DNA of 64,000 nt from Yuukianura sp. NJ FZ-2021 (lineage: Eukaryota), in NCBI GenBank assembly GCA_046563655.1, contig CM102285.1, forward strand, positions 5,642,001 to 5,706,000, read 5' to 3'. Position 1 is the stretch's first letter. Every line of letters starts with the position of its first letter. The position numbers were made by a program, and so were the translations under genes. This document shows, in pieces, positions 12,322-53,419 of the stretch. The notes beneath the pieces are model-generated. The model searched no databases, was not told the origin of the DNA, and was given only the letters and a program-made list of their open reading frames with translations.

Positions 12322-14705
12322 CTAATTTTCTTCTGAGTTCGAGGAATTTACCGAGTTCATCCGGTACTGTCGATCCTCCAGAATCATCGTTGCTGCCTTT
12401 TCTCCTATCATGATTACAGGTGCCATAAGGTTGCCTTTTTTAGTAAAAATTTTTCAAAAATTTAAAACAATTTCGAAAATAATGTAATAAAATATGTCAT
12501 CAGATATAATTGTTGTAATTTTTATCTAATGCATACCTGTGGGAACAGACGGCATAATTGACGCATCAGCAACTCTGAGTCCTCTGATACCGCCTAATAC
12601 TCGGAGTCGCGGATCGACAACCGAAACCCGCCAATCCGGTGGCCCCATTCTGCAGGTTCCGCATACATGAAGTTCACTGGCCGTAAGATGCCTGATTTTG
12701 CATTTGATGTAGTCATCCGACTGGTTCCAAATGTCCACAGGGTTGAAATAGTTTTCGCAACCTGGAAGCGGAAACTCGAAAGGTTTGGCGCCAATTTTTT
12801 GAAACGCTTTTGTTTTGCCTAGACGCATTGAAAACGTGTATGCCTCCACCAATCTAGCCTCATCTAGGACGCTAGAAAGATAGGCGGGGTCAACCAATGG
12901 CGGGTCATTGGGGTTCCTTGACCTCAGTTTGACCTGACCTCGACTCTTGACATAGTTGAGACAAGAGAAGATGTTGAGTGTAGGTTGATTCAAGTATGGT
13001 CCATAGTACTTGTCCATAATTTCCTTGTTCAGTGTAGGAGCTCCTCCGGTCAATAGGATTTGACCTGGCGGAAGAATCGCTGGAGCGATCATGACGTCAG
13101 ACGGACCAAAAAGTTTTCCTAGAGCGGGAACTTCCGATTTGAAATTTATAACTCCCGCCTGATGCAAATAAAACTGTGACGTCAGTGGTCCAGTGCCGTT
13201 GACATACATGAGTTCCAAATTTTCAACGGTTAGGAGATCTTGCCAGAATGAAAAAACGGTACTGTTGAGGACAAAGTCAACTCCGCCTGATCGGGTGTGA
13301 TCGTGTAGGTTCAAACCGACATCAAGATCGGCCACAACCGGAATTCCAAGGGCTTCAAGATCCCTACTCGGTCCGATACCGGATAAGAGGAGGAGCTTAG
13401 CCGAACCAATGGCGCCAGCCGAAACAATAATTTCACCGTCGCCGTGAACTCGAGCAAAGTGAGTTCGGCCGTTATGGCGATATTGAACACTTACGGCTCG
13501 GCTCCGGTAAAAATGGACTTTAGTGACGGTTGCACCCGTTTGGATAAATAAGTTCGGTCGGTGTGTTTCGGGTTTGAGAAAGGCAGAGGCCGTAGAAAGT
13601 CGTTTTCCGCGTCGAGTTGTGCGCTGGATTCGACTTACACCGACTTGTTTTGCTCCGTTGATGTCCGTTTCGGGGTATCCTAGCTCCTTTGCAGCTTGGA
13701 TCCAAGTGTCTCCGAGAAGCCGGTACGGCGCAGTCGCTGTGGTGATGTCAGGAGTCGTAATGGTCATTGGACCGCCTGTGCTGTGATAATGCTTCTGCTG
13801 TTTCAAAACCGGATCGGTTTGGTGTTCAGATTTTCTAAAAAATGGCAATACGTCTTCATATGACCATCCTTCTGCACCGTAGTCGATGGCCCAACCGCGG
13901 TAGTCGTTTGGCCCGCCACGATTGTACATCATGCCGTTAATTGAAGATCCGCCTAAAATTTTGTACAAAAAAAAATTATAAAGTGTTTTTTCTACAAATT
14001 TCGATTCTAGCAATTTTCTCCCATGTGTATCACATTAAAAATTTTATTCCCAGTGGTTAGAGGGTGGGATCTAGTTTTAAGTGTCGTAGCTTCGATGCTT
14101 GACGTTCGTTATGTTGAATTATTTTTTTTTTTGAAACTTCCGATTTGAATTTTTTTCGAACTTTTTTTTTTTATATCGAAGTGAGTAAAATTGGACCACA
14201 ATTTTGAAGTTGGAAACTTGAGTTTACCGCCAAGTATTCTTGCTGTTAAAATATTGATTTGCCTGTCGGGAAATCCGAGTAGAGCCGAGCGTTGGGGCGT
14301 TGTGAGAAACTCGTTGAGTTGCGTCGTGGGTTGCAACACGTTCATGACGTCCATCGCTGGAATGTCATTCGATACCTGTTCTACGTCACCCTCTTCCAGA
14401 ACTAGAACACGCAAGTTGCGATCTTCCGACAGGCGACCAGCGATGACTGACCCTGCAGTGCCTATAGTGACAAAAAAGGAGACATTTTTTGAAGAACTTT
14501 AGTATTTTTCGAAATTTTTTAATTAAATATGAAAATTTATTACAAATTTGAAATTACCGCCGCCAACAATGATGTAGTCATACAGTTGTCTTGCATCTCT
14601 GGGAGCTTTTTCTTTAAGATATTGATGAGTTCTGTGATCCCTTAAAATTGTTAACGAAATAGAGAGCAAGGCCGCCCTGAGCAAAATTCCTACGTAGAAG
14701 GTCAT
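12322..14705 (-). CDS. GMC oxidoreductase (glucose dehydrogenase-like), copy 1, apparently intact
   Basis: Four exons; N-terminal hydrophobic segment; YDYIIVGGG|TAG FAD motif; GGSSING; SAGAIGS; catalytic His in ELHVCGTCRMG; last exon GNLMAPVIMIGEKAA ends at TAG 12322. Confidence 0.9.
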
Positions 14706-15150
14706 TGCAGAAAATTAAAATTTTAGTAAAAAAAAAATTGCGGTTGAATAAAAAGAAAAGTGGGGTTAAATAGAAAGTTGAAACACATTTCCTGGAACAG
14801 TACAAATTGTAATGTAGAATTTTTGTCAGTGTTGTTTGAATGGTTCATTTGTCATCTGAGTTTTCATTTTCAAGGTGTTTGCGTAAGTTTTTTGACATTT
14901 TAATGAAGAATAATTCGCACCTTCAACAACTTATCACAATTTACGTTTTATTTTTAACTTTTGTCACCAACGTCATCTTTGATGACGCATTTCACCGCAT
15001 AAAGGTCTTCGGTGAAAGAAAAAAACACTCCGAGTTTTTTTTAGGTTTTATGTTTGATTATACATTGCAGCATTAGATTCCCGCAACTTAAAATTCAAAT
15101 ATTTTCGGTAATTTTTTTCTTAGAGCTTAATTCAAATTTCAATTTTTTGA

Positions 15151-17522
15151 TTAAAAAGTTAAATTGGACGATAGCGCTAAATTCATGCGATGTTGCCGAT
15201 CTTCCAGAATCATCGCTGCCGCCTTTTCTCCTATCATGATCACTGGTGCAACGGTATTGCCTAAATTTTGAAGAATGTTAAAAAATATTTAATATATGAA
15301 AATATTTAAGAAAAACGAACCAAAAATAGGTATGTATGCTATATGCTAATGTTATGCTAAATGTTCTCGGCATATAGAGTTTACCTGTGGGAACAGACGG
15401 CATAATTGATGCATCAGCAACTCTGAGTCCACTGATACCGCCAAGTACTCTGAGTCGCGGATCTACAACTGACGTCCGCTTATCAGCTGGTCCCATTTTG
15501 CATGTTCCGCATATATGGCCTTCAGTGGCTGTCAAATGCCTTATTTTGCATCTGATGTAGTCATCTGACTGGTTCCAAATGTCAGCACTGTTGAAATAAT
15601 CTTCGCACCCTGGAAGCGGATACTCGTAAGGTTTGGCCCCAATTTTTTGAAACGCTTTTGTTTTACCCAGCCGCATAGAAAACTTGTAAGCATCGATCAA
15701 TCTATCCATATCCCGAGGATTAGACAGGTATGCAGGGTCAACTAATGGCTGGTCATTGGGGTTCGTTGACCTCAGTTTGACCTTCCCGCGACTCTGCACA
15801 TAGTTTAAACACGAGAAGATGTTAAGTGTAGGTTGACCAAAGTATGGTCCATAATACTTGTCCATAATTTCCTTGCTCAGAGGTGGGTCTCCGCCTGTGA
15901 GAAAAATTTGTCCGGACGGAAGAAGTGCTGGAGCGATCATGACGTCAGACGGACCAAACAATTTCCGTTTTGTAGTTGATTATTGCATACTGATGAAGGT
16001 AAAACTGAGAAGTCAGCGGTCCGGTACTGTTCACATACAGCTGTTCCAAGTTTTCAACGGTAAGAAGATCCTGCCAGGGTGTAAAAATTGTACTGTTTAC
16101 GACAAGGTCGACTCCGGCAGCACGCGGATGATCGTGAAAATTACGACCGACAGGCAGATTAGCAACGACCGGAATACCGAGTGCTTCCAGATCCTGTTTC
16201 GGTCCGATACCGGACAAGAAGAGGAGCTTGGCCGAACCAATCGTACCGGCCGAAACAATAATTTCACCGTCTTCGTGAACGCGAGCGACGTGAGTTCGGC
16301 CGTTGTGACGGTACCGCACACTTACTGCCCTGTTTCGGTCAAAATTGATTTTGGTAACGAATGCACCAGTGAGGATGAATAAGTTCGGTCGATGGGTTTC
16401 CGGTTTGAGGAAAGCCGTTGCCGTGGAAAGTCGTTTTCCGTTTCGAATTGTTCGTTGGATTCGGTTTGAACCGACTTGGTTTACTCCGTTGATGTCGGTT
16501 TCGGGGTATCCAAGTTCCTCAGCCGCTTGTAACCAAGTATCAACGAGCAGACGGTACGGCGCAGTAGCTGTGCTTGTATTTGGACTCGTAAGTGTCAATG
16601 GACCGCCCGTGCTGTGGTAGTACTTTTGTTGTTTCAAAACTGGATCTGTTTGGTCTTCCGATTTTTTATAAAATGGCAGCACATCTTCGTACGACCATCC
16701 TTTCGCGCCGTGTTCTATCGCCCATGCGCGGTAGTCGTTCGCTCCACCCCGGTTGTACATAAACCCATGAACTGATGATCCGCCTAGTTTAAAAAAAAAC
16801 ACTTTTTGTGTAAGTTGTTTTTATGTTTAAGTATTACACAGATATTTATAAATATCCAGCATGTATCAGTGTATCGGTTGGGTTAGAATGTCGACCTAAA
16901 TTTGAAAAGATGCTGGCACGAGTCCTGCAGTCGTGAATTCTTTTTTAATTATTTGTTTTTAAATCCACCCCCAACGGCTTATTCAGAAAAAACAAGTAAA
17001 ATTTATAAAAAAAAAAAAAAAGTTCAATTGAAAAGTTTCATTTTTTTTCACCGCCGAGTATTCTTCCTGTAGCAATTTTCAATTGTCTGGTGGGAAATCC
17101 GAGTGATGATGACTTTTGGGGCGTCGTGAGAATCCAGTTGAGTTGCGTCGTTGGCGGGAAGATATTCAAGAGGTCCATGGCTGGAATGTCGTTGGCGACA
17201 TTTTCGACGTCACCCTCTTCCAGAACCAGAACGCGCAAGTTGCTGTTTTCAGTGAGGCGACCAGCGATGACACACCCAGCCGTTCCTGGTTTCCACCAAA
17301 ACACAAACAAAAAAGTTTCAACTTTTCAAAAAAAAAATGGGTGACTTTTCAATTTTTTTTCTGAAATTTAAACTTACCGCCCCCGACAATGATGTAGTCA
17401 TACAATTGTTTGCCATGTGGTTCCTTTTCTTTGAAAGACTCGTGGTTTGTGTGATCTTGTAAAATTGTTAATGAAATGGAAAGCAGGGCAGCTTTTAGCG
17501 AAATTCCAACATAGAAGGTCAT
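15151..17522 (-). pseudogene. GMC oxidoreductase copy 2 with a 17-nt frameshifting deletion at ~15960
   Basis: Same exon structure as copy 1. Copy 1 has 21 nt between GAA and TTTGGTCCG (VPALGKL); copy 2 has 4 nt (ATTG), splitting ORFs 15945-16802 and 15278-15961. Confidence 0.75.
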
Positions 17523-17921
17523 TGCAAAACTAAAACTTTGTTAACAATACTGACTGTGCTTCAGCAAGCAAAAAGAACATTTTTTTTAATAAAAACTTTA
17601 AAGTCAGTTCCTGGAACGGTTAATTTCTGTGGACGTGCAGCTACATACAATTTATCACTTTGACATTTGAACTCTTCAAAAAAGAAAGAATACGAGTATG
17701 GCATTTCAATGAAAAATAATTTTCAGTTCGAAAAAAATTTTCAATAATTTTCGAGGCGATTCGCGTTTTGTGTAGTGAACACAATATAAAAAAAAAAGAC
17801 GAAGAAAAGGTTAAAAATATCTTGAGAGGCATTTTTAGCAAACACAAAATTACTTTAACAAAAACGAAAGTTTTTTTTGATTCAACACAAAAACAATGAA
17901 AATTTTCTGTGAGTATTTCTT

Positions 17922-20900
17922 TTATCCACGGTCTTCCAAAATCATCGCTGTTGCTTTCTCTGCGATCATGATTACAGGAACCATCGTATTTCCTTAAAAA
18001 AAAGGAGAGTATAACTATATATTTTCAAAAGTTTTTAATAAAATTTCAAAAGTTCCAAAATATATTTGATATTTTCCTGGAAACGCCAACACAAACTCGA
18101 AAGATTTTTTTTCGAAAACGTTACCTGTAGGAATCGATGGCATGATTGAAGCATCGGCCACTCGGAGTCCTTTGATTTGACCTCGAACTCTGAGTCGTGT
18201 GTCAACCACTGCTGAATTGTCTTCAGATGACCCCATTTTGCATGTTCCGCAGACATGAGCGTCACTTGTTGACAGCCATTTGATTTTACATGCAATGTAT
18301 TCGTCTGATTGGGCACTAGGATCCGTTGCATTAAAAAACTGGGCACACCCAGCCAGTGGAGTTTCAAATGCTTTGGCGCCAATTTTTTGAAATGCATACA
18401 TTTTGCCCAATTTCATAGCAATTTTGTAGGCTGCCACCAGTCTCTTCAGGTCATCTGGCTGCGTTAGATATGCCGGATCAATGATTGGAGCGTCAGTGTA
18501 GTTGGTTGACCTCAATTTGACCTGACCTCTGCTCTTCACGTAATTCAGACACATGATGATGTTCAGTGTTGGTTGACTTCCGTATTGTCCATAGTAGTCA
18601 TTCGTTTCTTGATTCCCTAACGGTCCCGTTCCTATTCCGTTGACACCTACAGGCAAAGCGGATGGCTCAATCATGATATCGGCTGGACCAAAAGTGGCGC
18701 CATCAGTAGGAACATCAGTTTGAATCTGGATTGCGCCTGCTTGGTGAAAGTAAAACTGAGACGCAAGTGGGCCAGTTCCATTGGAGTAAAATGATTCCAA
18801 GTTTTCAACTGTCAACAAATCCTGCCAGTCCGAAAAAACAGTAGTGTTGACCACAAAGTCAACACCGCCAACTCTTGTGTGATCGTGAAAGTTGTGTCCA
18901 ACAGGCAGGTCAGCCACGACAGGAATTCCTAGGCTTTTCAAATCCTCTTTCGGACCGACTCCGGACAAAAGCAGAAGTTGGGCTGAAGCGATTGCTCCGG
19001 CTGAAACGATGATCTCTCCGGCCGAGTTGACTTTGGCGACATACGTGACACTGTTGTTGTAGCGAAACTGCACAGCAACTGCGCGCTTATTTTCAAAAAT
19101 GATTTTGGCTGCAAAGGCACTCGTGATGATGGACAGGTTATCCCTGTCCAAAAGTGGACCGAGGTATGCCTTGGCAGTGGACAGTCTTTTGCCATCTCTC
19201 ATGGTCCGCTGAATCCTCGTTGAGCCAATTTGATTTGGTCCATTGATGTCTGTCTCTGGATATCCGAGTTCTGCCGCTCCTTCAATAAAATCAAGGTCGG
19301 TAAAAAAAAATCTGTAGCAGGTTGTCCAGTAACTCAAAGTCTAAAACTTTGTTTTAAAGTAGTAATTCTGGCCTTCTATGGTATTTTTTTTGCATGTAAC
19401 GTAGGATTGGTGCTAAAAGTTGTTGAAGTAAAGATTTTTGAAAACCAGGAGTTACTGGACAACCTATTGTAGGAAATACAATCCGTTGTCAAGAAACCTT
19501 GAATGAGAGTGTCCGACAGCAGGCGGTAGGGGGCAGTAGCTTGGTCAATGTCTGGAGTGGAAATTGTCATTGGTCCATCCGTTCCATGGTAAGTCGTATC
19601 CAGTTTCAAAATCGGATCTGTTTGATTTTCTAATTTTTTGAAAAATGGCAAAACGTCTGCGTACAACCACCCCTCTGCACCGTAGTCCAGAACCCATCCG
19701 TCGTAGTCTTTTGCCCCACCACGATTGTACATCATTCCATTCCCTGTGGACCCACCTAAGAAGTGAAGAATACATTTTGCAAATAAAGTACCGCATTATT
19801 CGCAATGGATAAGTTTAGGCCTTCATATATTAGACCAGAAGGATTAGGCTAACTAATTAAGCCAAGCAAACTTCAGTAAAACCATTGAAATGCCTCGGAG
19901 TTAGCAAATTATTGCCGAAAGATTAGTTTTTCACATTATAAGTGTGAAAACTGATACCTAATATATTTAAGATGTTAGGCTTTACTGCTTATACGCGACG
20001 AAATTAAGCCTAATGAACCTTCTGTGTGTTGAACAATTAGGCCCGAGAAATTCAGAATTCATAGGACCTAATTCGCTGTTGATTGAAATTTTAAGAGACT
20101 AATCATCGCCATAATACAATACAATCCAGGTACATGAAACAGAAACAAAATGTTGAAAATATATTACAAAAATCAGTATAATTCAAAAACAAAAAAATCG
20201 CTATGTACCCCCGAGGGCTCTTCCAGTGAGGATGCCAACTTGGTTGTTGGTAAATCCAAAAGCAGCATTTTGTTGTGGAACTGTCAAGTACTGGTTGAAT
20301 TGTGTCGTAGGTGGAATCCAGTTCAGAAAATCCATCGCTGGGATGCCATTGGACACAGTTTCTACGTCGCCCTTTTCAAGGACAAGAACGCGCAGACTCG
20401 GGTTCTCAGAAAGACGTCCAGCTATGACAGACCCAGCGGTGCCTGGATTTAAGATAAACTTATACTTGTATAATAACAGCAATCTAAATTGTACAATATG
20501 TGCGTAGATTGGAGAAAAATTTTTGATACTCTTGGTAGACTCCGATTTGTAAGAAAAAATTTTTCTAGACTAATTTGAGGACGCTGAACACGAACATGAA
20601 AAAAATTTCCGCGGAAACCACTTTTTTCAAATTTTTCAAAATATTGAAAAAAAAAAATTTTTTTGCATGGTTTTGGCTCCCGGCATGAAAATTGTGCATA
20701 AGCTCAGTAACCTAGCCTAACATACAAGTGCAATCACCATTGTTAATTTAAGCAAACCTAACACCGCGCCTTCGGCGCGGGAAATTGTAAGCCATTTCTC
20801 TATTTCAGGAGTCCGCCTAAATGTGATTCCAGATTCGAGTTCAACACCCCGAAATTAGTCGAGAAAATAAATTTCATGGAAATGGGAGACAAAAAAATCC

Positions 20901-21319
20901 CAGAAAATTTTTTTCCCAAAATTTTGAAAAAATTCAAAAAAGTGGTTTCCGCGGAAATTTTTTTTATATTCGTGTTCAGCATCCTCAAATTAGAGTAGAA
21001 AAATTTTTTAATGCAAATCGGACTCTACTAAGAGTATCAAATTTTTGCCTAGATTGGATATAGTATAACCACAATTTATTCATAAATAAGTAGAACTACA
21101 ATTATCAATTTCTGGTTAAATTTCAATACTAAAATATAATTAAATTGTAATTAAAGTCAATGTAACTTTACCTCCTCCGATGACAACGTAGTCGAATGGT
21201 TCCTGGAGTGTCTTCGGCAGTTTGTGTATCAAAGCGTCGTGATCCCTGGTTTCTTTCAAAACGCCAGCGGAAATAGCCAGCAACGCTGCTTTCAAAAGTG
21301 CTCCCGTATAAACCACCAT
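17922..21319 (-). CDS. GMC oxidoreductase copy 3, apparently intact, with a MITE in intron 1
   Basis: Five exons: MVVYTGALL...FDYVVIGGG | TAGSVIAGRLSE | GGSTGNGMMYNRGG | ...DAHVCGTCKMG | GNTMVPVIMIAEKA..EDRG*. Confidence 0.88.
20514..21049. mobile_element. TIR MITE with 9-bp TSD (Mutator-like)
   Basis: ~140-bp imperfect TIRs; TAGATTGGA at 20505-20513 and 21050-21058; empty site TAAATGGGA in the paralogous intron at ~26569; central CCGCGCCTTCGGCGCGG at 20764-20780. Confidence 0.88.
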
Positions 21320-21997
21320 TCTGAGTGTTAAAGTTGGCGGGATCTTGTGACGACAAAACAAGAAACGAAATAAAAAAAAGTTTATTACAAATGTATAAAT
21401 AGGTTCATGTATAATTTATAAATACATTCCATTTGACTTCCTGGAATTTGTCATAAATTAGAAATTGTTTAGCGTTCATCTCTTTTAAACTTGTTTGTAT
21501 CAAAATACTATCTTACCTTGAATTCAGTGTATTCACCACTTGATTTTGCGCAAACAAATATTCACTAAATTCTACTAGTTTAGCAATCCAGAATCTATGA
21601 AGTTCGGGGCTTGTGAAACCCTTTGATGGAATTGAAATTTTTATAAAAACAGCGTTTGATTTTGATGGAGTATTAATTCTGGAACTCTATACTTGGAGAA
21701 AGCAGAAGTTGAAATGCGTTTGGTACATTTGAAGCCTAACCTAATTTAAGGGGCCCAAAAGGCCCTGTGTAAATACAAAACAAGTTCTTTTGTATTTACA
21801 CAAGTGGCCAGCCAACTGTCCAGTCCAGGTCGACTTGACCTTGGCCTTTTTGGAATGCTGTTTACAGTCAACAACAACAAACTGAATTACAACAGTTTAA
21901 ACTCCAGTTGCATAATTGGTGTTTAACAAAGGGGTTGTTGAACTAAACATAGTTGAGAAATTGTTGTTGAACGACTCTTTTGATTTGGAGGGAAAAA

Positions 21998-22215
21998 TTA
22001 AACTGTCAGGCCATTCAGTTGTGGAATTGGGCGATAGATGGCAATCTGTGGTGATAGTGAATTCCGGACAGCCTGAAGTGTTCTAGCTGTAAGAATATTT
22101 TCAAAAACAGGACGCCGAGGCAGTTGTTCCGGTAATGCGACCGGCGATGACATACCCAGCAGTACCTGATTTGATGCCAAAACATTAAAAATGTCCAACT
22201 TTTCAGAAAAGTTCA
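21998..22215 (-). pseudogene. Degenerate 3' fragment of an alpha-carbonic anhydrase
   Basis: Translates to LEHF/QAVRNSLSPQIAIYRPIPQLNGLTV*, matching the last exon at 28912-29020 (LEQFWAIRSAQSRMLANYRPIQPLNGRTV). The preceding exon end ...SNQ|GTAC matches ...SKSQ|GTAC. Confidence 0.6.
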
Positions 22216-22956
22216 CTTTTGTTAAACTTGAACAAAAACGAATGCTGCTTCTGAGAAAACATACTTCTTTAAACACAAGTTCCAAATACAATTTCTGGTA
22301 CGGTTATACTTTTATTGACTTTCAACAGGGTCATTCACAACTTTCACGTTTGAACTCTTGAGAGAAGAAAATAGGAGTTTGGTATCTCAGTAAAAATAGT
22401 TTTTCGTTTAAAAAAATTTGTATGAAAGTATACGCAGTTATCCACTTTTAGAAGAAAAAAAAACTTTATAGAAAAACAGAAGAAGGACGTTTAATGAAAA
22501 AAAAACGCATTCCAAAGACTAAAATATTTGTTTTGTTTCTTGTTGTTATTTACTTATTTTTTTGGAAATTTCTGTATTTCAATTCATTGCGTCTGTAATC
22601 TGAGAGAATGCAACATGCAACCAAGTAGATTTTGAAAATGTTTTAAAAAATAACAGCAAATAATGCGTTTCATATTTTCAAAATAAACTTAACTCCGGTA
22701 ATTCAAATTTTAACGAATTTTCAACAGTTTTGTTGCGAAAATCAAAACCGTAGTTGAAATCGATTGAAATTATTTTGATGTAAGGAGAAACTTATGGGCA
22801 TTTTGGGTAAATCAAAAAAGTTCAGATTTTGATTAAAATGTTTTTGAGCATGCGTTCTCTTTTAGGCTTTCAACACAAAAAAAATTGATATTGTTAATTA
22901 CCGGAATGGAGAGACTATTTTTAAGTTTAGTTTTTTAAAGTTCCGGGTAATCTTGT

Positions 22957-23308
22957 TATCCGCAATCCTCCAAAATCATTGCTGCTGCCTTCTCGGCAAT
23001 CATGATGATAGGAGTCATTGCATGCATTACCTAAAAAAGTCGCAACTTCTTGTATATGTTTTTCATAAAATTTCATATTTCCCAGGAAACGCGAACTGGA
23101 GAGATTTTTTCTTCGAAAGCGTTACCTGTAGGAATCCATGGTTGCTGAATTGTCTTCAGATGACACCATTTGGCATGTTCCACAGGCATGCTGCTCACTT
23201 CCTGACAAACATTTGATTTTGCATCTGTTCTGAACTGTTCCAGCAATAAGAAAGCTTTCATAACCAGGACGCGCTGGTACTTGTTTTCACATGAACGTAG
23301 AAGGTCAT
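22957..23308 (-). pseudogene. Collapsed GMC oxidoreductase relic
   Basis: Retains last exon (PIIMIAEKAAAMILED), part of the HACGTC region with an internal deletion, and an ATGACCTTCTACG start like copies 1/2 at ~23308; the middle is deleted. Confidence 0.75.
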
Positions 23309-23952
23309 TTGTGTATTGAAGGGAAAAAAATTAACAAAAACTGGTTCTGCTTCTGAGAAAAAAAAACTTATTTATATTATCATTAAAAATAATATTTCAA
23401 ATCTGATACGGTTCAACCTTTGTCGACTATCAACTGGGTCATCTTCATCTATCATACTTTCACGTTTGGCATTTCAATGAAAAATAATTTTCAGTTTGAC
23501 AAAGTTTGGAAGAAATTACGCGCTCTGAAGAATAAAGAACTTTAAAAAAAAGAGATGGACATTTTTTGGCAAGACAGAAAAAATCATTCCAAACACTAAT
23601 TTTTTTTCCGAAATTTCTGTATTTCAAGTTCGTTGCTCTGTAATCTCACGGATTGCCACCTAAGATGATTTTCAAAAAGTTTAATAAAATAACTCCGTTA
23701 ATCCAAATTTTAACAAGGGTTTAAAGGATTACTTTGCGGGAATCAAAACCGTAAGTTGAAATCGATTGGAATTGCTAGGATTGGAATTGAAAGGAAGAAA
23801 ATTATAGACATTTTCGCATAAGATTTTGATTAGGTTGTTTTTGAGCATGCATTTCTTTTTACACCATTTCAAAGAAACTGCTTTTTAATTCGACGGAATG
23901 GAAAAAAAAATTTTTGAGTTTAGTTTTTGAACGTTCTGAGTAATCGGCTTGC

Positions 23953-26832
23953 TTATACACGATCTTCCAAAATCATTGCTGCTGCCTTCTCGGCGATCAT
24001 GATTATAGGAGTCATGGCATTACCTGAAAAAAAGTTGTCACTTCTTTTATACATTTTTTTTTATAAAATTTCACGTTTAAAAATTTATTTAATATTTTTC
24101 AGAAAACGAGAACTGGGAAGATTTTGTTTTTTGAAAACGTTACCTGTAGGAATCGATGGCATAATTGAAGCATCCCCAACTCGGAGTCCTTTGATTTGAC
24201 CTCGAACTCTTAGTCGTGTGTCAACCACTGCTGAATTGTCCTCATATGACCCCATTTTGCATGTTCCGCAAGCATGGAGCTCACTTCCTGACAACCATTT
24301 GATTTTACATGCAATGTATTCGTCTGATTGGTCACTGGGATCCGTTGCGTTAAAAAACTGGGCACACCCTGCCAGTGGAGTTTCAAATGCTTTGGCACCA
24401 ATTTTTTGAAAGGCTTCCGTTGTGCCCAATTTCATTGCAATTTTATGTCCTGCCACAAGTCTCTGCAAATCTTCCGGCTGCGTTAGATAAGCCGGGTCAA
24501 CCAGCGGAGGGTCAGTATAGTTGGTTGACCTCAACTTGACCTGACCTCTGCTCCGGACATAATTCAGACACATGATGATGTTCAGTGTTGGTTGACTTCC
24601 GTATTGTCCATAGTAGTCATTCGTTTCTTGATTCCCTAACGGTCCCGTTCCTATTCCGTCGACACCTACAGGCAAAGCGGATGGTTCAATCATGGTATCG
24701 GCAGGACCGAAAGTGGCGCCATTCGTAGGAACATCAGTTTGAATCTGGATTGCGCCTGCCTGGTGAAAGTAAAACTGAGACGCCAGAGGACCAGTTCCAT
24801 TGGAGTAAAATGCTTCCAAGTTTTCAGTGGTCAACAAATCCTGCCAGTCCGAAAAAACAGTAGTGTTAACCACAAAGTCAACACCGCCAACTCTTGTGTG
24901 ATCGTGAAAGTTGTGTCCAACGGGCAGGTCAGCCACGACAGGAATTCCTAGGCTTTTCAAATCCTCTTTCGGACCGACTCCGGACAAAAGCAGAATTTGG
25001 GCTGAAGCGATTGCTCCGGCTGAAACGATGATCTCTCCGGCCGAATTGATCTTGGCAACGTACGTGACACTGTTGTTGTAGCGAAACTGCACAGCAACTG
25101 CTCGCTTATTTTTAAAAATAATTTTGGTTGCAAAGGCACTCGTGATGATGGACAGGTTATCCCTGTCCACAAGTGGACCGAGGTATGCCTTTGGCAGTGG
25201 ACAGTCGTTTGCCATCTCTCATGGTCCGCTGAATCCTCGTTGAGCCAAGTTGATTTGGTCCATTGATGTCTGTCTCTGGATATCCAAGTTCTGCCGCTCC
25301 TTAAATCAAAGCAAGGTTGGTAAACAAAAAAAAAATTCTACACCAGGTTATCCAGTAACTCGAAGTCTAAAACTTTGTTTGAAAGTAAGAAATCTTGCCT
25401 TCTATGGTATTTTTTTGCATGTAACGTGTAAGATTGGTACTAAAGGTGTTTGAGAAGTAAAGATTTGTGAAAACCCTGAGTTACTGGACAACCTATATTG
25501 TAGGAAATACAATCCCGTTGTCAAGAAACCTTGAATAAAAGTGTCCGACAGAAGGCGGTAGGGGGCAGTAGCTTGGTCAATGTCTGGAGTGGAAATTGTC
25601 ATTGGTCCTTCCGTTCCATGGTAAGTCGTATCTAGCCTAAAAACTGGATCTGTTTGATTTTCCATTTTTTTGAAAAATGGCAAAACGTCTGCGTACGACC
25701 ACCCCTCTGCACCGTAGTCCAGAACCCATCCGTCGTAGTCTTTTGCCCCACCACGATTGTGCATCATCCCATTCACCGTGGTCCCACCTAAGAAGTGAAG
25801 AATACATTTTACATCCAAAATACCAACTAAACTGCATTTAGGCCAATTTATAAGTTGAAATTTAGGCCTTCACAAATTAGGCAAGAAAAACTAGGCTCCC
25901 CATTATGCCCAAAACGGACTAATCTTGAAAAAATCAGCGGTAGGTTTGGTTCACTCCACCATACTGATTGGTGCTTTCAATACCAAGCTTTAAGGCATCA
26001 TTGATGCCCTATTATTGTTTGGCATACTTGAATTAGTCTAAACATCAATTTTGAGCTAGGTAAGGAACAAACAAAATCGATTTTTTCCCCAAAATTCCGA
26101 ACAAATTTGGCCTTCATCGATTATGCCCGAGAAATTCCAAATTCACGACCTACTTCTTTACGGATGAAAATTTGTATGGACACATCAACGTAATAAATGA
26201 GTACGAACTTAAGGAAAATCTCTAAAGAAAAAATATTACGGAAATCAATATATATATTTTGAAAAAAATTTGCTACCTCCGAGAGCTCTTCCAATGAAGA
26301 TAGCAACTTCGTTGTTTATGAATGCAAAAGCAGCATTTTGTTGAGGTACTGTCAAGTACTGGTTGAATTGTGTCGTAGGTGGAGCCCAGTTAAGATAATC
26401 CATAGCTGGAATGTCATTGGACACAGTTTCTACGTCGCCTTTTTCAAGGACAAGAACGCGCAGACTAGGGTTCTCAGCGAGACGTCCAGCTATGACACAC
26501 CCAGCATTTCCTGAATTTAAATAGAATTATACTTGAATACGAGCAATTTAAATTGTATGATATGTGCGTAAATGGGATACAAAATTCTAATTTTCCTTAA
26601 ATCAATTAGTACAAATATCAATTTCTGGTTAAATTTCAATACTAAAATTTAATTAAATCTTAATTAAAGTTAATGTGACTTTACCTCCTCCGATGACAAT
26701 GTAGTCGAATGGTTCCCGGAGTGTTTTCGGCAGTTTGCGGGTCAAGGCTTGGTGGTCCCTGGTTTCTTTCAAAACGCCAATTGAAATAGCCAGCAACGCT
26801 GCTGTCAAAAGTGATCCAGTGGAAACTACCAT
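23953..26832 (-). CDS. GMC oxidoreductase copy 4 with a +1 frameshift at ~25190 (pseudogene or sequencing error)
   Basis: Near-identical to copy 3. GCCTTTGGCAG versus GCCTTGGCAG in copy 3 shifts RLSTAKAYLG. Catalytic ELHACGTCKMG and GNAMTPIIMIAEKAA are retained. Confidence 0.8.
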
Positions 26833-28911: not shown

Positions 28912-30997
28912 TTAATTTGCAGCAAAAAATTCTACCGTTCGGCCATTGAGTGGTTGAATTGGACGATAGTTTGCAAGCATCCGCGACTGTGCACTCCTAA
29001 TAGCCCAAAACTGTTCCAGCTATGAGAAAATTTTCATGAAATTTTTATCATTACAGAATGCGTTTTTTCCAAAACGTACTTGGGATTTTGAAATTGCCAC
29101 TTCTTGCAAAAATACAGTCCAGATAACTTTTTCCTCACAGGCAGGAGTGGTCAAAGATCCATGGTAACGAGCAAATGTAAAATCAAGTGGGTAGAGGTCA
29201 GTAAATTTTAGTATCAATGACACATGCTTTCCAGTGCCAGAGATACGTAGATTTGGCAGTTCTTGGACGATTCCCCTCAATCCCACGTTTTCATTGTTGG
29301 CCACCTAGGAATGTAAAGGGCAAAGGTCAAAGGTCAAAAATCGAAGGTCGTCATGACAATAACATTTTGATTCACACTTTAAAGAAAATGGCCATGACTG
29401 CTAGAGCTGTGGAGTCTGATGATTTAATGGCGGCTGCCAAAGAGGGAAAGTTTGATTTGTAATGAACCATGTGCAGTTCCATGACGGCCCTAAGAAATTT
29501 AACTTATAAATTTTTTCCAAAAATTTCAAATTGTAAATCTTTTCCAAAATTTGAGTTTTTGGATTAAGGCTTCCGTGTTGTGTTACGCACTGCTTTCCTT
29601 CCACAGTGTGTTCTGATCCAGCGTAACCATATCCCCAGTGAAAATGGAACTGCGCCAATTTGTACCTTCCTGGCAACTTCCCGCCAGAAATGACTAAATT
29701 TTCCTGTGCCCAAGTAGCCACTTCAAATTGCACTGCCAAAAATAAGCCAAAGGTCAAAGGTCAAGGTCAAACTGTATTTTTTTTTCAAATTTCTGACCGG
29801 TATGTCCGTTATTTTGGGCATACAATCCAAAATCCAATGAATTTCTGTAACTATCTGATGCTTGAAATCGGGTTTTCTCGGTGGGACGCCCACTGCCCCG
29901 TTGGATGTTTATGGGAGACTGTTGGTAACCATGGTTACAGAAGCCACCCCATGTATTTGGACCACAGGATGGACGGTCATAGCACCAAGAGTCGCCTAAA
30001 GCTATGACAACATAACATAATTATAATAATACGTCATCAAGGTTGATTTAGCAACGAATAAATAGTATTCCTTCAACAAAAACGTCAAACTCGAGTTATT
30101 GCCTAACCTATTAAAGAAAAACTATTTCTTTATTTATCCACCTTGAGTATAATTATTATCATAGTATAGTATATAACTTAAAAAGCTTAACAGAAATAGT
30201 TTACCAAATTCTCCATAGATGCTGTTCGATGGATCACCCTGTTTCAAACAAAATTCTTCACCGAATTTAAAATTTTCAGGTTTCTTAAGTTTTGGTTAAA
30301 ATTTGTTATGATCTTTGCAAATTGTAACTTTTTAAGAATTCTAAAAGCGGAAGTTGTAGGAATACAGAAAAGTGAAGTGTGCCGTTCGTCCGGTTATTTT
30401 TAAGAGACTGCAATTCTAGATCAAAATTTAAAGCGTTTGAATTTGAAACACTTAGAAATTCAAAAATTTACAAATTCAAAAACGGTGGCTGCAGCATTCA
30501 TAACGGAATTGCCTTTATAGTAGTCTGCGGGAAATGCGTAGCGTGGCCTAAAATTTAATCAAATTGAAAAGCAGTTTAATTTTTTTTTAAATGAATTTGT
30601 ATATCATTGAACTTACGCCTTGACTTGGTTAACTTCTAGATTAGTATGGTCAAATTCAGCTGCGCGAAGGGCACGACGAATGCTGCTTGACCTGCTCCTT
30701 TTAACCCAAAATTCGGTCGAGGAGTTTACTTCTACTTTGTTTCCGAAAAAGTAGCACTGAAATTTTGAAGTATTTAAACCAATTTCGACACAATCTTTCG
30801 ACTTTTTTTGAAAAAAAATTAAAACGTTTTCGTACATTTGGATCTGCGCTTCTTATATCCATTAACTTTTTGGCTTGACCGTCAGTTTGCGGCGTGACCT
30901 TGAACGTTCTGTAGGTCTTATACGACACTTCATTTCCGGTGAATCCATAGCAATCACTCAGTATTACAAGTAAAACACAAAGTGTAAGTTTAACCAT
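28912..30997 (-). CDS. Secreted alpha-carbonic anhydrase with an N-terminal M14 carboxypeptidase activation-peptide-like domain
   Basis: Signal peptide MVKLTLCVLLVILSDCYG. CA motifs QSPINI, NNGHT, QFHFHWG, GSEHT, MELHMVH, YHGSLTTP and NYRPIQPLNGR are all present. 5' exons 30997-30836, 30756-30617, 30547-30484, 30407-30366 and 30238-30205 splice in frame into 29995. Confidence 0.8.
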
Positions 30998-31474
30998 GGT
31001 GTGAATCTATTTAATGAAACAGAAATTACTAAACTTCTATACTAAACGAATTTCCCAGTTTTTAAACTTCTTGAAACATACACATGACCTCTTCACCATA
31101 ACATAAAACTAAAAAAACGCTTGGTGGATCAAAAACTTATCATGTTTTGAATTAAAACATATTTTTTCACCTCCAAAGTACACGGTAGTGAAAAATCAGA
31201 AATTTGAAAGTTCAGAACTTAGATTAACTGAGGTTTTTGAGTTGAGGTCATCGAGGTCAAACGTTAAAGAGCTTGAATTTGCATGTTACAACAGAAATGA
31301 ACTAATCTGTAAACCTGACAAAAAATCAAGTGTAAGTTTTTGCACTGAGATGTCAATGACCTTTGACCTTTGACCACTGTGTATTTCTGGATAGGAAAAA
31401 AAATTCATTTATTTTAGTCCTGTTTTAGAATTAACAAAGATTATACCAAAATTAAAAACAAAACAATGATTTTC

Positions 31475-34861: not shown

Positions 34862-36133
34862 TGTCGCAATTTTTGAACTTCTCGCTTTCAAAATCAAAGT
34901 TTTTTTAATTTTTTGGCTCAAACGTTTCTCGTACTAACATCAAACGTACTGGAAATTGGAATTCACAGTGTTAATTATATAGGCACTTCAACGACTGTCG
35001 GGACTTTGAAGATCATTTGTCATTGTGATGCAACAAACAGAGTTCTCGGTGCTATAAGCTGGCGTAATGAAAACTCAAAGGATCCGCTTTTGAAACTTCA
35101 AAGGAGCATAAAACTTTAACCATGCTAAATACGTACTGAATTGTAGATAGCTGAGCGCAGTTGCGCAGTTAAATTTTATTTCCCAATTATATTTCAATGT
35201 GCTAGTTATCGCGTTACGTGCTTCTTGAAGCTATTTTTTTCCCTGGAAAGTACATGGAACAACGATTTACAAAAGAATTAGAAAAGGTATGAAATTCATT
35301 TTTAAGTTTTTTGTTAACTCTGCACCTGTTCAACTGCAGGCTGGATAATATTTAGACCACTTTTCTATTTGCCACATTTTTGAAGTTTTGATGCAAATGC
35401 TAAATAGCCGTTCCAAGTCAAAAAGAAACTCGGAAACAGTAAAAACAAGCTATGGCAAGATGTACGACGATACATTTTTGATGTATTTTTTCTTTACAAT
35501 GTGATTAATTTTTGAAACTCTGTGTAACCGGGAAATATGTAAAAAAAAAAAAATAACCACTACACCGAATTTGTGTTTGTTATGAGAGCGAGGAATGAGA
35601 CATAGGAATACAACAAAACAGCATGTTTCTGCAGCATATTGCCACATGATGTATTTATTATACATTTAGATCATAGACATTTGAATTTTAAATGAAACTT
35701 TTTTTAATTAAAAGATGATTTGTGTAGTTAACATGGGAAATATTTTTGTATTATTTTATTTTTTTCATGAATATTTTTAGTATTAGACGTTAATTATTCC
35801 CCGCAGCGACAGGAACAACTTCTGGTAGAATCATTTTGTTTTGGTTTTATTTTGAAAAGGACAATGATTTTAATCTTGAGGTCATGAATCGATATATGTC
35901 ATTTTATAACGTAGCACACATGATTGATGCAATTCATGAAACTATTTTTGCCATTTGATTGATAATATTTTATGGTAGAAGAGCATTTTGTCAACATTTC
36001 ACAAGAACATCAATCATTGTTAGTTGCATTTTATAAAGCACCATTCAAAAAACATTGACACATTTAGTATTTGGTCAAACTGTTTTCGCCTATGTTGCTT
36101 CAAATCTTTTAAAAGTTCAATTTTTAAAACAAA

Positions 36134-38088
36134 ATGAACGCCTATCGCTGGATTTTAGTCGTTTTTAATTTTTGTGCACCAGTTTTTTCAAGTTATATGG
36201 AAGTTGAAATCGACTTTTTCAAAATCGCTTCGCCAATTACAGCTTCGGCATTACAACAAGGATCAAATGCAAAAGGTCAAATTTGTTCGACATGGCTCTT
36301 TGCAAGGTCAAGGTCATTGACCCCGAATTTTCAGTATCCTGCTGAATTTGTACTGCCAGTAGTCCAGTTATCCCTCAGTCCGCCAACTTCGCAACAATTT
36401 ACACCATTTCAAAATCCAAGTTTGGAGTACACAGAAGACCGAATTTTAAATTCGTCAGTATTTGGAACACGACAGAAATGTGTCAACTGCGCAGCAGTAT
36501 TTATCCAGTTCGACGCAACGGTGAACTTTATACTTCGCGAGGTCATTGACCTCAAGTTTGGCCGTCCGAACAAAGACTTCTTTGTGTTCTTCGGAGCCGT
36601 TCCGCTTGGTCAACTCGAAACCGGAATCCGGTTTACGGAAAACCTCCAGTTGACTGAACTTCGGTTCAAATATGCTTACTCAACCGTTGACAAGCGGATT
36701 TGGAACGGTTGTGCAGTGGCGGCAAGATCCGAAAACTTGAAACTTTTTAGTAGATCCTGTCCAGCTCTGATCACAAACCGACATTTTAGTATCGTTTCAA
36801 GTAACATGAGATCGTTTCTTCACTTCGTCCGGGTCAACGGAATTGATATTCCGGCTGGTTCGGTTTACAATGTCTGGTCAACCATAGCTGTTCGATACAA
36901 CTTAACGGCTGACGTTCGTTATGCAGAATTCGGCGCTTCTGGGTCCAAACAAAACGGAGTTTGGAGAGGAGCAATTGGAGAAGTCATTTCGAGAAAGGCA
37001 GACATTGCCTTTGGATTTGCCGCTACAATTTTTCGAAATCGGGCATCCGATACTACAGTTTTTTTGAATGTAATTTCCCGCCATTTTTACATTAGAACGC
37101 CCCAGTTTCGTACCAATTGGGCATCAATATTTTGGCCCCTGAGTCCAACCTTATGGGCCATGACATTTGGGCTTATGGGTTTCGTCATTATACCGAGTTG
37201 CTTGGCTTGTACCGTTTCGGAGTTTCCGGTCGCTCCGAAGACTCGGCTTTTTTCTGAAGTTGTTGGCGCTGTTTTTCGGATTCTTGTGGATCAAGAGACA
37301 GTTGCTCTGCATTGGACCGGAAACCGTGTTCGGTTTGTGTTTATGCTGTGGACACTTTTTGCTTTAGTAATCGGAACGGCTTATGAATCTAAATTAATCA
37401 CCGTGCTAAGTTTTATCAGTCAAGAGGAGATTCCGACAACACATGAACAGCTGAGTTTGAGCAACTACAAGCTGTTTTTTCGCTACATGGGTGGTTTTGC
37501 GTACAACTTCGCCGCTACTTCACATTATCCATATCATAAACAAATTTTGAAAAGAGCGCGACTTGTGAACAGTTCGGAAGAGTGTTTATTCGCAACACTT
37601 TTCAGTTCCTCCCCAGCAGCTTGGTTGGACTACAACAACAATGCGGAGTTTGCGCTCGATGAATTCGCGACCTTGAACCCCGCAATCGAGCAGAACCCGC
37701 TCTTCTTCCAGTCCAAGGAAATCGATCATGTGGCTATGAATACTTGGGGGTTTCGTAAAGGCTCCCCTTTGTGGAGTCGTTCGATGAACTGATTTTAAGG
37801 GTCCGGGCAGGGGGACTGTATGACTCCGGAGCTAGGAGGGAACGGCACAACATTAGAGTCAAAGGGGCCAAGGCCCTTACGGAGTCAGTTAGAACTAAGC
37901 TGGAGGCGATTTTGAAGACGCTGGAAGAAGGGCCGAAGCCGTTGACGCTGGAAGCGATCAAGGGGATTGTTTACTTGCTTGCTGCTACTACTCTGGTTGG
38001 ATTGGTAGTTTTCGGAGTGGAAAAGTTCTGGGCAAGTTCCTCAAGTCACGGTCGAATCGTGTGTAACGTAAGGCGTTTATTGATCTGA
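36134..38088 (+). CDS. Divergent intronless ionotropic receptor (IR); 1-nt frameshift at ~37768
   Basis: Signal peptide; S1 NGVWRGAIGEVISRKADIAFG; PLSPTLW before M1; M3 LWTLFALVIGTAYESKLIT; S2 end FRKGSPL continues in another frame as ESFDELILRVRAGGL...PLTLEAIKG + TM. Confidence 0.85.
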
Positions 38089-38641: not shown

Positions 38642-41583
38642 TTACGTTGCCCTATGTTGCCTTAACTCAATCGAATTAGACCTGCGTATTCTTCTTCGAT
38701 TACATTTATTTCGAATCCATGTTTCAACTTCTTTTCCTAGAAGTTTCAATTCTGTGCGAAACTTCCTGCCAAGAATGCAGTAAAGGATGAAATTTACAGC
38801 AGAATTGATGAGTATGGGGAGACATACAATTGTTGCGGAAACTTCAGGCTCAACTCCTTTCAGAATAAAGTTGAGTTCCAGTGCAGCAGCCACAGAGTTA
38901 CACAGAATAAATACGAACACTACAGTCAGCAACATTCTGGTCAACGAAGTGTCATGCGCAGTACTATGTGTGGTCGCCGTAATTCGCCGCTCTCTGGCTG
39001 CTTTGGTTACCTTATAAACGTAACATGAACAGGTACATGAACAATTTAATTTTTATCTTAGTATTGCGTTGTTCGTATATTTCGTTTGAAACGTTACCGT
39101 TCGAATGATGAGTATGTTTAGTGTGACGATGGTAAGAAAGGGAACTGTGTAGATGCATAGATACCAGAGCAGTTGCTGGTAAATGATTTGGTAGAGCGGA
39201 AATCTGTGCAACTGAGGTGGGGAACTTCTGTTCCACTCATGAGATGAAGCTTCGTAACTCCATTTTACAAATTCAAACCACCGCGGTAAATTCAACAACG
39301 TTGCAAACCCAAATACTAACAGTGTGTAACGTCGTGCTTTTCGAATAGTAAAAATTGAAGACACGAGAAGTGGCTTTGTAATTGCAACAAAGCGTTCCAC
39401 CGTAACCAAAATGGTCATATACACCGACGCTGTGTACACTACAAACGTCAATTATGTATTATTATTATTATGCATAGAAACAACACAATGCACACAATGA
39501 ACACAAATACTTCAACTCTGTTTCCGCCAAAATTTAAATCAAATTTTTACTTGTTTTGTTGATCGGGTATGCCAGGTATCCATTTAAATTTGAGCGGCGG
39601 AAATATTCTTGAAACAAATTACTGAATTCTTCTGACGAAACAAACGACGTAAGGAGGTACATTGAATCGCAGCATGCTAGTCCCAAAAGAAGAATGCTCG
39701 TGGAGCTGCGCATTGTTTTGCGCATGAGCACAACAAAGCTTAAGCAGTTACAGAGAAGTCCAATGCCACAAATGCAGTAAACAAATGTCATGTAGGTGGT
39801 GTAAATTTGTGACAACAATGCTGGAGTTATTTCTTCTTCAGAGAATCCATGTAATTTCAAATGACGTCGAATCCTGTACTCTTTTCTTAGCAAGTAGTCA
39901 TCATAGACATGGCTAAACTGGTAACCATCTCCTCCGTCGGAATAAAAAACTATTGACCGCCCTCCGTCGAAAGTGTCGGCAGGAAATGTTGCTTTTAACA
40001 CTGTTTTTATGACTGTTTTAAATTGAGCTTTGATGTTGGCTCCTGGGTCGTACATAGGCATTCTTACTACAACTGTCGGAGTTCGTTGTTTTACAAATGG
40101 CAAAACCAATTTTTGAGACAATACATCCTCCATATCCAACATAACTTGCCATAAATGACGAAAAATATTTCCAATATTGTCTGAAATTGTGTCGTCAGTT
40201 GTACACATTAGCATTGCCAAATATGTCAGATTTGACAGCGCCCTAACTGGTAAAGTTTTGACACTAACTTCGACAAACAGCAAATTCAAGGTTCTTATAG
40301 ACCTCAACCCAGGTGACCCTAGGTCAACTATAGGACACTCTTCATCCAAATACTGACAGTTGATGAACAGAGATTTCAATTTGTGATTTTTCAAAATATC
40401 GTCTAATTTGGTATTCCACAAATACGAATTGTATAGAAGAAGGTCTCGAAATTCTTTGGATAAATTGAAAAGGCCGAGGTCAATGTCACCAAACAGCACG
40501 TTAATTTCCTGTAAGTTGGTAAACTGTTGTCGCAAGTGAGGAGGAGCCGAGTTGTAGCGCAAGCTCAACGACCCTGTTTCAATATCCTCGAGTGATTCGG
40601 CGGGAAGAATTGCGATGTCAATTGCTTCAGGAACTTTGCTATAAATCCTTAAACTTTCAACGACAACGGCAGACTTTATAAGTTGTGATAATGTGCCGCC
40701 GATGAGGTCATTGTGCCGCAAGTACAAAGCTTTGACCGAGGTCAACCTCAACAACTTGACATCAATTGTGCAATAACTTACTTCGAATGTTTCGATATTT
40801 GGGATCAAGCTGTATAACAGTCTCCAACTTTCTTCATCTTTAACGTCCACGGCTTCCAACTTTGTATTGCTCAATTCCAAAGATGCTTCTTGTGGAGTAG
40901 AGAAATCGATGTAATAATAATTCAAATTCTGGAGTACTCTGATTACTCCTGTGCCTTTGCTTGAATTTGTATAAAAGAAGATTACTGACTCTAAGGTTTC
41001 TCGGACGCTCCCAACATATTGTGTATCATCGATTTGCTTGAATTCAAAATCTTCTAAATTGGGAAGGTATATGTTTTGAAAATTCTGTTCAGTTTTCCAC
41101 TCCAACTCTACATTCGTCAACTTCAACGTTGTCAAATTGGTACAATTGGTTAAAAAATTTGCAAGTGTGAATCTCTTCACATGCACAAATTCCAATTCCA
41201 CTTCTGTTAGGGTACACTGACCATCGACTGTTGACATTTTTCCCAGTCCTTCTAAATCCTCCAGAAAAGTTTTGTTTCCTTGCAGCATGATTTTATGTTC
41301 CTTTAGAATTAAACAAATTATAGTACGCTTACAGTATACATGCTGTATTGTTTTGTAATAGATAGATCTAACTTTTACAGCTACAAAATTAATAAACGAC
41401 GCGTAAATGAGAAAAGTTTGGAAATTGACGATAGTATAACTAAAATACTTTCATAATTATTTAATGAGTATATTTTTAACTTAACCTCCGCTTAGCCAAG
41501 CTTGACACACTTACAGTGATATGCCTTTCCGCTGTCACAACTGACGCAACTAAAAACACTAGCAGAATTGGAAAAATCTTCAT
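38642..41583 (-). CDS. Class A peptide GPCR (FMRFamide-receptor-like 7TM) with a ~480-aa LRR-like ectodomain
   Basis: Signal exon 41583-41515. Exon 41300-~39551 runs from LRR-like repeats directly into TM1-2 (GLLCNCLSFVVL..MRSSTSILLLGLACCD). Then ERFVAITKPL, NLPRWFE, TRMLLTVVFVFILCN, NSAVNFILYCILGRKFR. Confidence 0.85.
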
Positions 41584-53086: not shown

Positions 53087-53419
53087 TTGCCGACTCTGGA
53101 TTTCACTGGGCCCTGGGAGATCTACATTGTGCAGCGAGATGACCTTTGCGTGAGCAAAGTCTGCATAATTTGTGTGGACATTGAGCGCCGAAGTGATTTG
53201 GAGATGAACATGAATAGCATAATCCAGAATTTTGAGTTTGATTCCTTCCTGCAGTGAATTGTTGACCTCCTCTCTGTTTGAGCGGTTTCGAGTACCCTCC
53301 TTCTCGTGTATTGACTCCAAAGTGTGATTTAGGTTAGTAAATAATGGGAATGTGTGCACCTTACCTGCTAACTTTGCACATACGCTGTTGAGCCTTAACT
53401 GCGCGGTAAATACACCTTC

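Follow-up and report, generated by a model that had tools for sequence, protein, structure and literature searches.

The stretch analyzed here, 64,000 nucleotides (nt) of the genome of Yuukianura sp. NJ FZ-2021 (GenBank assembly GCA_046563655.1, contig CM102285.1, positions 5,642,001 to 5,706,000; hereafter the window), has the character of animal DNA with short introns. Its minus strand carries, from position 30997 to 28912, a predicted gene in which a signal peptide and a domain resembling the activation peptide of M14A carboxypeptidases are probably fused to a secreted alpha-carbonic anhydrase (alpha-CA). Our analysis concerns a single gene model, itself predicted, from a single genome. The spliced model comprises nine exons with a coding sequence of 1197 nt (398 codons plus stop), and all of its introns, which measure 60–233 nt, run from GT to AG and are compatible in phase. 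The 398-residue product begins with a signal peptide, which is followed by some 80 residues of N-terminal region, a linker of about 37 residues and a complete alpha-CA. The exons and their boundaries, with residue numbers referring to the spliced product, are as follows.

Exon 1, 30836..30997, minus strand: start codon ATG at 30997; signal peptide at about residues 1–18; first 28 positions of the Propep_M14-like profile (residues 26–54).
Exon 1 end, 30836, minus strand: phase 0, donor GTACGA; coincides with the M14A phase-0 intron.
Exon 2, 30617..30756, minus strand: 140 nt (46 codons plus two bases), residues 55–100; second half of the Propep_M14-like domain.
Exon 2 ends, 30756 and 30617, minus strand: begins with CYFF at the xDFW position of the family; phase 2 at its end, donor GTAAGT.
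Exon 3, 30472..30547, minus strand: 76 nt, phase 2 to 0; linker, residues 101–126; matches no Pfam family.
Exon 4, 30205..30238, minus strand: 34 nt, phase 0 to 1; predicted adaptor micro-exon, residues 127–137.
Exon 5, 29798..29995, minus strand: start of the alpha-CA, with the WCY..C..W..C cysteines, QSPINI and NNGH (His64); Carb_anhydrase (PF00194) 23.7 bits, profile positions 1–57.
Exon 6, 29591..29732, minus strand: QFHFHWG (zinc ligands His94 and His96) and GSEH (Glu106); PF00194 42.2 bits, positions 64–103.
Exon 7, 29378..29489, minus strand: ELHMVH (zinc ligand His119); PF00194 27.2 bits, positions 107–139.
Exon 8, 29080..29304, minus strand: GSLTTPAC (Thr199 and the Cys203 equivalent); PF00194 56.4 bits, positions 144–216.
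Exon 9, 28912..29019, minus strand: end of the CA and stop codon TAA, with an ATTAAA hexamer overlapping the stop; PF00194 19.1 bits, positions 220–251.

The peptide that had been quoted for exons 1 and 2 in an earlier reading of this DNA (the original prediction) is exactly what the two spliced exons encode. Its description of the linker holds insofar as the exons are in frame and compatible in phase, and is corrected in their number, which is two (76 and 34 nt) rather than three, the first CA exon beginning at 29995. Exon 4 is a prediction, included because a micro-exon of 34 nt is needed for exon 3 to continue into exon 5 in frame. In a codon log-likelihood comparison, exons 1–4 had their highest values when read in the frame of the model (+0.06 to +0.33 log2 units per codon), similar to those of the CA exons, and the values of the introns were mostly negative. 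This comparison is biased in that the exon frames had been chosen as open ones.

Exons 5–9 encode an alpha-CA that, from its intact catalytic residues, is probably active. Each of these exons matched the Pfam family Carb_anhydrase when scanned alone, with the scores listed above (whole-protein cut-off 27 bits), and jointly they cover profile positions 1–251 of 254; the scan comprised eight exon pieces, as exon 4 (11 residues) lies below scannable length. The motifs HFHWG, ELHMVH, GSEH, SLTTP and NNGH are all present and have their aligned counterparts in 10 relatives, and the residue numbers used here (His64, His94, His96, Glu106, His119 and Thr199) follow human CA II. The intact alpha-CA proposed originally, with three zinc-binding histidines, the glutamate, the threonine and the histidine of NNGH, was thus recovered in full in the spliced model, in the alignment and in the profile scan.

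A HMMER search of 1.84 billion representative proteins with exon 8 yielded 562 relatives at E ≤ 1e-3, and a word-based protein search with the same exon yielded a single weak CA match. The best single-domain match to the spliced model in a phmmer comparison was a CA of the springtail Orchesella cincta (ODN02460.1, P0136; 194 bits, model residues 136–394), and the other named CA relatives were molluscan. Homology to these relatives begins at model residues 135–140, which corresponds to the start of exon 5. In all 10 aligned relatives a hydrophobic leader directly precedes the CA domain, and all 10 share with the window gene a cysteine pair, one member located before QSP and the other in TTPxC; an additional WCY..C pair is common to the window CA and that of Orchesella. 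The window CA lacks a C-terminal membrane or anchor tail, whereas relatives with tails run further, including P0136, P0123, P0126 and P0150, which carry a hydrophobic one. Because the cysteine pair typical of extracellular CAs is kept and no C-terminal tail is present, the window CA looks like a soluble secreted enzyme.

An enzyme of this type calls for a leader, and exons 5–9 contribute none. The gene upstream encodes a C2H2 zinc-finger protein whose stop lies at about 31478, some 480 bp 5′ of the ATG of exon 1. Across the 1.5 kb between that stop and exon 5, a single ATG-initiated open reading frame (ORF), that starting at 30997, has a signal-like hydrophobic core (Kyte–Doolittle mean of 3.32 over nine residues). 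As the extracellular-type CA has no leader of its own and the sole signal-like ORF is exon 1, exon 1 probably belongs to the CA gene.

We then compared the N-terminal region with the pro-domains of M14 carboxypeptidases. Metagenome contigs were searched with a short M14 active-site motif, which yielded at least 118 loci, and 119 motif matches in those gave 31 long ORFs. Peptidase_M14 was found in 29 of them, 16 of which also contained Propep_M14 (23–92 bits), and the latter 16 Pfam-verified domains were used to build a local profile. Several further loci carry full-length M14 ORFs with 90–260 residues before the catalytic domain and no Pfam Propep_M14 (L017, L034, L043, L056, L063, L077 and L080; from 14 bits to below 0 on the local profile), from which it appears that the activation domain often diverges past the curated model. 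Two others (L005 and L027) encode M14 precursors of about 795 residues in which the pro-domain is preceded by some 340 residues and has about eight extra residues inserted in its loop.

Residues 19–146 of the spliced product matched the local profile with 10.7 bits (E = 2e-5 for one sequence, p ≈ 2e-5), and the alignment covers residues 26–49, starting from profile position 1 just past the signal peptide. This score was reached by none of 20,000 shuffled sequences (maximum 8.6 bits) and by none of 1,902 unrelated real pieces of 128 residues (maximum 9.8 bits). A profile–profile comparison with hhalign gave a probability of 68% and a score of 27.5 over 62 columns, which none of 600 shuffles attained (maximum 19.0), while the reversed sequence scored 10.3. 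A value of 10.7 bits is typical of a diverged true member, since the pro-regions of 10 real M14 ORFs missed by Pfam ranged from 25.5 down to −1.4 bits on the same profile.

Exon 2 was evaluated by an end-anchored global alignment to the corresponding exon-2 profile of the family, which returned a score of −0.95; shuffled sequences averaged −27.3 (standard deviation 6.0), and −0.95 was reached by one of 5,000 shuffles and by one of 4,000 real 46-residue pieces. The exon keeps the hydrophobic core positions of the family as well as the acidic residue of the vDi.V strand. Its xDFW motif is lost and reads CYFF, a placement on which hmmsearch, hmmalign and MAFFT agree; among 19 aligned family sequences the aspartate is present in 15 (glutamate in 3) and the tryptophan in 18. 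AlphaFold2 models of the mature exon 1 and exon 2 fragments were of low confidence (predicted local distance difference test, pLDDT, 64.7 and 60.8). They place a helix at residues 21–28 of the exon 1 fragment, and strands at residues 7–10 and 14–17 followed by a helix at residues 24–35 in the exon 2 fragment. At that low confidence, the helix and the strand–strand–helix arrangement sit where the alignment expects alpha1, beta3 and alpha2 and would be compatible with the open-sandwich beta-alpha-beta-beta-alpha-beta fold of activation domains.

The positions of the introns provide a further line of comparison. A six-frame profile scan of the M14 loci was used to pick genomic, intron-bearing copies from clearly different lineages, and their exon ends were read; the M14A-typical intron sites are thus defined here from metagenome loci alone. 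A phase-0 intron directly before xDFW (profile positions 28|29) is present in four of the six readable intron-bearing M14A loci (L013, L016, L024 and L028), with L012 and L022 reading through this site, and intron 1 of the window gene is likewise in phase 0 and directly precedes CYFF. A phase-2 intron within the codon that follows D[VL]Q (profile position 74) occurs in four of seven M14A loci (L012, L013, L028 and L054). At the remaining three, a phase-0 donor lies two bases earlier (L022) or five codons later (L024), or the donor is missing (L016). Intron 2 of the window gene, likewise in phase 2, falls within the codon that follows NQVK. Between the two introns lies an exon of 134 nt in L013, 137 nt in L028 and 140 nt in the window gene. 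The M14A exon that follows runs from phase 2 to phase 0 (79 nt in L028, 94 nt in L013 and 97 nt in L054), and exon 3 of the window gene, at 76 nt, has the same phases and no likeness in sequence. The possibility that exon 3 represents the start of a mature peptidase was discarded, as an extended profile comprising the pro-domain and 75 M14 catalytic residues gave no extension of the match into exons 3 and 4.

The gene structure settles most of the question of homology. We consider it very probable that exons 1 and 2 are homologous to the pro-region of M14A carboxypeptidases, and the original assignment to Propep_M14 is supported by the local profile match, the likeness of exon 2 and the shared introns, while the curated Pfam model is silent on the separate exons. 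No catalytic domain accompanies the pro-like domain: Pfam found no Peptidase_M14 in the 431 stop-to-stop ORFs of at least 55 residues in the whole window, and a local full-length M14 profile found no catalytic match in its 3,173 six-frame segments of at least 12 residues, which bears out the absence reported at the outset.

Several observations weigh against this assignment and against the joining of the exons into one gene. Scanned separately, exons 1, 2 and 3 matched no Pfam family at E ≤ 10 (Propep_M14 cut-off 22.1 bits), so that neither exon half of the domain has a curated Propep_M14 match, the outcome originally named as evidence against the idea. Exons 1 and 2 matched no PDB sequence at E ≤ 10, and the best match to the N-terminus among 151 proteins (the best 150 of the 562 CA relatives plus P0001) had E = 1.7, that is, no protein with a similar N-terminus was found there. 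The HMMER and hhalign signal lies wholly within about 24 residues of exon 1, with exon 2 alone at chance level (1.2 bits in HMMER, 0.6% probability in hhalign); in leave-one-out tests, true members of the family scored 21–99 bits overall and always 15–52 bits in this second part. When all six frames of the window were scanned with the Propep_M14 profile, the exon-1 ORF in its unspliced form scored 8.2 bits, a value that two segments unrelated to it also reached (8.5 and 8.3 bits). The hypothesis was, moreover, chosen after the sequence had been viewed, and the same p-value applied Pfam-wide would correspond to E ≈ 0.5. As for the gene structure, intron 2 coincides exactly only if a one-residue insertion or deletion is placed inside exon 2, and intron sites vary among the M14A loci themselves, L012, L016, L022 and L024 each differing at one site. 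Exons 3 and 4, and with them the linkage of exon 2 to exon 5, are predictions of the model. Finally, reading through the donor of exon 2 leads to an immediate stop (GCG TAA), and intron 2 contains two ATTAAA hexamers, which together would make a short two-exon transcript possible.

Other searches were similarly unproductive: neither exon 1 nor exon 2 gave a match at E ≤ 10 in word-based protein searches, a metagenome scan with exon 1 gave none, the ESM Atlas returned no usable match for exon 2, and scans of prokaryote genome contigs for Propep_M14 sequences found no relative. The empty Pfam result has a plain rationale. HMMER applies a default Forward filter of 1e-5, and a match of 10.7 bits with p ≈ 2e-5 lies just past the point at which hmmscan would drop it.

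The first alternative to be weighed is that the likeness arose by chance, the first 120 residues being an orphan extension that is specific to the lineage and has no relation to M14 propeptides. The lack of a curated-model match, the confinement of the signal to 24 residues and the two window segments that equal the score of the unspliced exon-1 ORF all fit this reading, as does the return of Fibrinogen_C clusters by the ESM Atlas for the same stretch of mature exon 1. That lead (short clusters; 36 residues, score 0.94, 162/256 shared features, below the guide value of 170) is itself probably a chance match; Pfam did not report Fibrinogen_C, and exon 2 does not fit it. Against coincidence, three partly independent lines agree, namely the profile match, the anchored likeness of exon 2, and two intron positions and phases together with the exon length, and we regard a chance resemblance as very unlikely. 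A second alternative accepts the homology and divides the locus into two units, in which exons 1–2 (perhaps 1–3) are the remnant of a procarboxypeptidase gene that has decayed, or are still transcribed from it as a short independent unit, and give a secreted protein of 101 residues that ends at the read-through TAA, with the CA as a separate gene. The immediate stop behind the exon-2 donor, the paired ATTAAA hexamers, the divergence of exon 2 almost past recognition and the lack of a fused orthologue among the best 150 of the 562 CA relatives are all in keeping with such an arrangement. It would, however, leave an extracellular, disulfide-type CA without a signal-peptide ORF of its own; a start at the ATG of 30501 would yield a protein with no leader, only 113 nt past the stop of the upstream unit. 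Even after long divergence, exons 1–3 also retain 125 open codons, splice sites that fit the consensus and a codon usage like that of coding sequence. Two separate units are thus unlikely in our assessment.

The explanation that we favor, and hold to be fairly probable, is a chimeric gene in which an M14A procarboxypeptidase gene contributed its two 5′-most coding exons, perhaps with the third as well to judge from its phases, and these were joined to an extracellular-type alpha-CA gene that has no signal-peptide exon of its own. An origin by exon shuffling or fusion had been proposed for this locus before, and it gains support from the profile match, the likeness of exon 2 and the coincidence of the introns. 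Under this scenario, the 5′ exons of the M14A gene, which encode signal peptide and pro-domain, would have taken the place of a secreted CA's leader exon and probably brought their promoter along. The product would be an active, soluble CA, secreted by means of the captured signal peptide and bearing a flexible linker and an alpha/beta pro-domain that is small and strongly diverged. The main contribution of the module may lie in the promoter, the secretion signal and perhaps a gut-type regulation, with the domain itself as a passenger, and proteases may clip the pro-like domain at Lys/Arg sites in exons 2 and 3. The loss of the DFW motif, together with the strongest divergence in the half of the domain that is normally best conserved, fits a release from the peptidase partner.

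More specific roles for the domain have to be measured against the same features, and none of the three put forward originally (chaperone, inhibitor removed by proteolysis, tethered carboxypeptidase inhibitor) is supported by the results. M14A pro-domains block a zinc peptidase until they are removed by trypsin, and descent from such a family makes it conceivable that the gene encodes a pro-CA zymogen, in which the M14-derived domain covers the active-site funnel of the CA and keeps it inactive until a protease removes it; basic sites (KRSR, RR and K-A-P-R), located within exon 2 and where exon 3 begins, would suit such processing. The loss of the DFW motif, through which the family makes contact, speaks against this, as do the unrelated folds of the CA and M14 catalytic domains, and no CA zymogen was found in the literature searched, a limited sample. 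We therefore rate a zymogen as quite unlikely, and a digestive-type secreted CA capped by the re-purposed pro-domain until luminal proteases remove the cap as a still more doubtful proposition, although it would, if true, extend protease-style activation control to a zinc enzyme that is not a protease. Free M14A pro-segments inhibit their own enzymes, and this raises the alternative of a tethered carboxypeptidase binder, in which the domain still binds an M14 enzyme and the CA is recruited to that enzyme or serves to inhibit it. Retained binding is argued against by the loss of the near-invariant DFW, as this position reads Y-F-F in a family with aspartate in 15 of 19 sequences (glutamate in 3) and tryptophan in 18 of 19, and by the location of the strongest divergence in what is normally the most conserved second half; we consider this alternative highly improbable. 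In the reading that we favor, a function of the pro-like domain as a specific inhibitor of the CA or of carboxypeptidases is unlikely.

A CA with a carboxypeptidase propeptide was found neither in the literature searched nor among the best 150 of the 562 CA relatives, both limited samples, and Propep_M14 was absent from the 27 extended CA relatives that were scanned. One profile match in a multi-CA protein (P0077, 9.8 bits) proved to be a chance segment of 31 residues and was rejected. If the fused transcript is real, the locus represents a clean and datable case of exon capture, in which a protease pro-domain module together with a signal peptide, and probably a promoter, was placed onto an unrelated zinc enzyme, with the intron positions of the donor gene still readable. 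It would also constitute a natural test of whether an M14 pro-domain can fold without its peptidase partner and of what becomes of a pro-domain once freed from it, the contact motif here having been lost and the core positions kept. On a methodological level, the case shows how a homology assignment that would stay in the twilight zone on profile scores alone can be recovered from the phases and positions of introns.

The surroundings of the gene contain a small number of further features. A DR1-type repeat recurs at the following positions.

31357..31376, minus strand: DR1-type tandem AGGTCA-A-AGGTCA (heptad AGGTCAA), about 360 bp upstream of the ATG.
29751..29763, plus strand: DR1-type repeat in intron 5.
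29317..29336, plus strand: DR1-type repeat in intron 7, as two overlapping matches.

Five of the six window matches to this repeat, AGGTCAAAGGTCA, counted with at most one mismatch, fall at the CA gene, compared to 0.09 expected by chance. These repeats could be candidate nuclear-receptor sites of the HNF4/RXR type or, alternatively, copies of a small dispersed repeat.

Elsewhere in the window, the following was observed.

3134–5047, plus strand: a single ORF of 638 residues with an AIG1/GIMAP-like GTPase domain.
12529–25869, minus strand: four GMC oxidoreductase genes in tandem, with 60–81% mutual identity and long ORFs that are almost uninterrupted by introns.
36128–37789, plus strand: a single ORF of 554 residues with weak, sub-threshold matches to ionotropic glutamate receptor domains, which may be a divergent gene of that kind.
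38645–41450, minus strand: an ORF of 638 residues with leucine-rich repeats, followed by rhodopsin-type seven-transmembrane exons; looks like a leucine-rich repeat-containing G-protein-coupled receptor.
53106–53333, minus strand: a zf-CCHC zinc knuckle, possibly a mobile-element remnant.
59851–60042, minus strand: a PIF1-like helicase fragment, possibly likewise a mobile-element remnant.

Compared to known systems, the window gene combines features of two. With the M14A activation domain (PF02244), its N-terminal domain shares the location right past the signal peptide, the length of about 75 residues and, from profile position 1, the pattern Y..YR.FKV.P.T..Q...L. It scores 10.7 bits, in contrast to the 21–99 bits of true members in leave-one-out tests, and it precedes a CA, whereas the activation domain precedes Peptidase_M14. 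With the extracellular alpha-CAs of invertebrates, the window gene has in common the full PF00194 domain, the zinc-binding and proton-shuttle residues, and the disulfide pair. The signal peptide of those enzymes adjoins the CA domain directly, whereas in the window gene about 120 residues, the pro-like domain and the linker, lie between the two. N-terminal additions of this kind have parallels: vertebrate CA IX has an N-terminal proteoglycan-like region, and the multi-CA and otherwise extended relatives, many of the best 150 of the 562 being multi-domain proteins, provide a precedent for an alpha-CA that tolerates N-terminal extensions and fusions.

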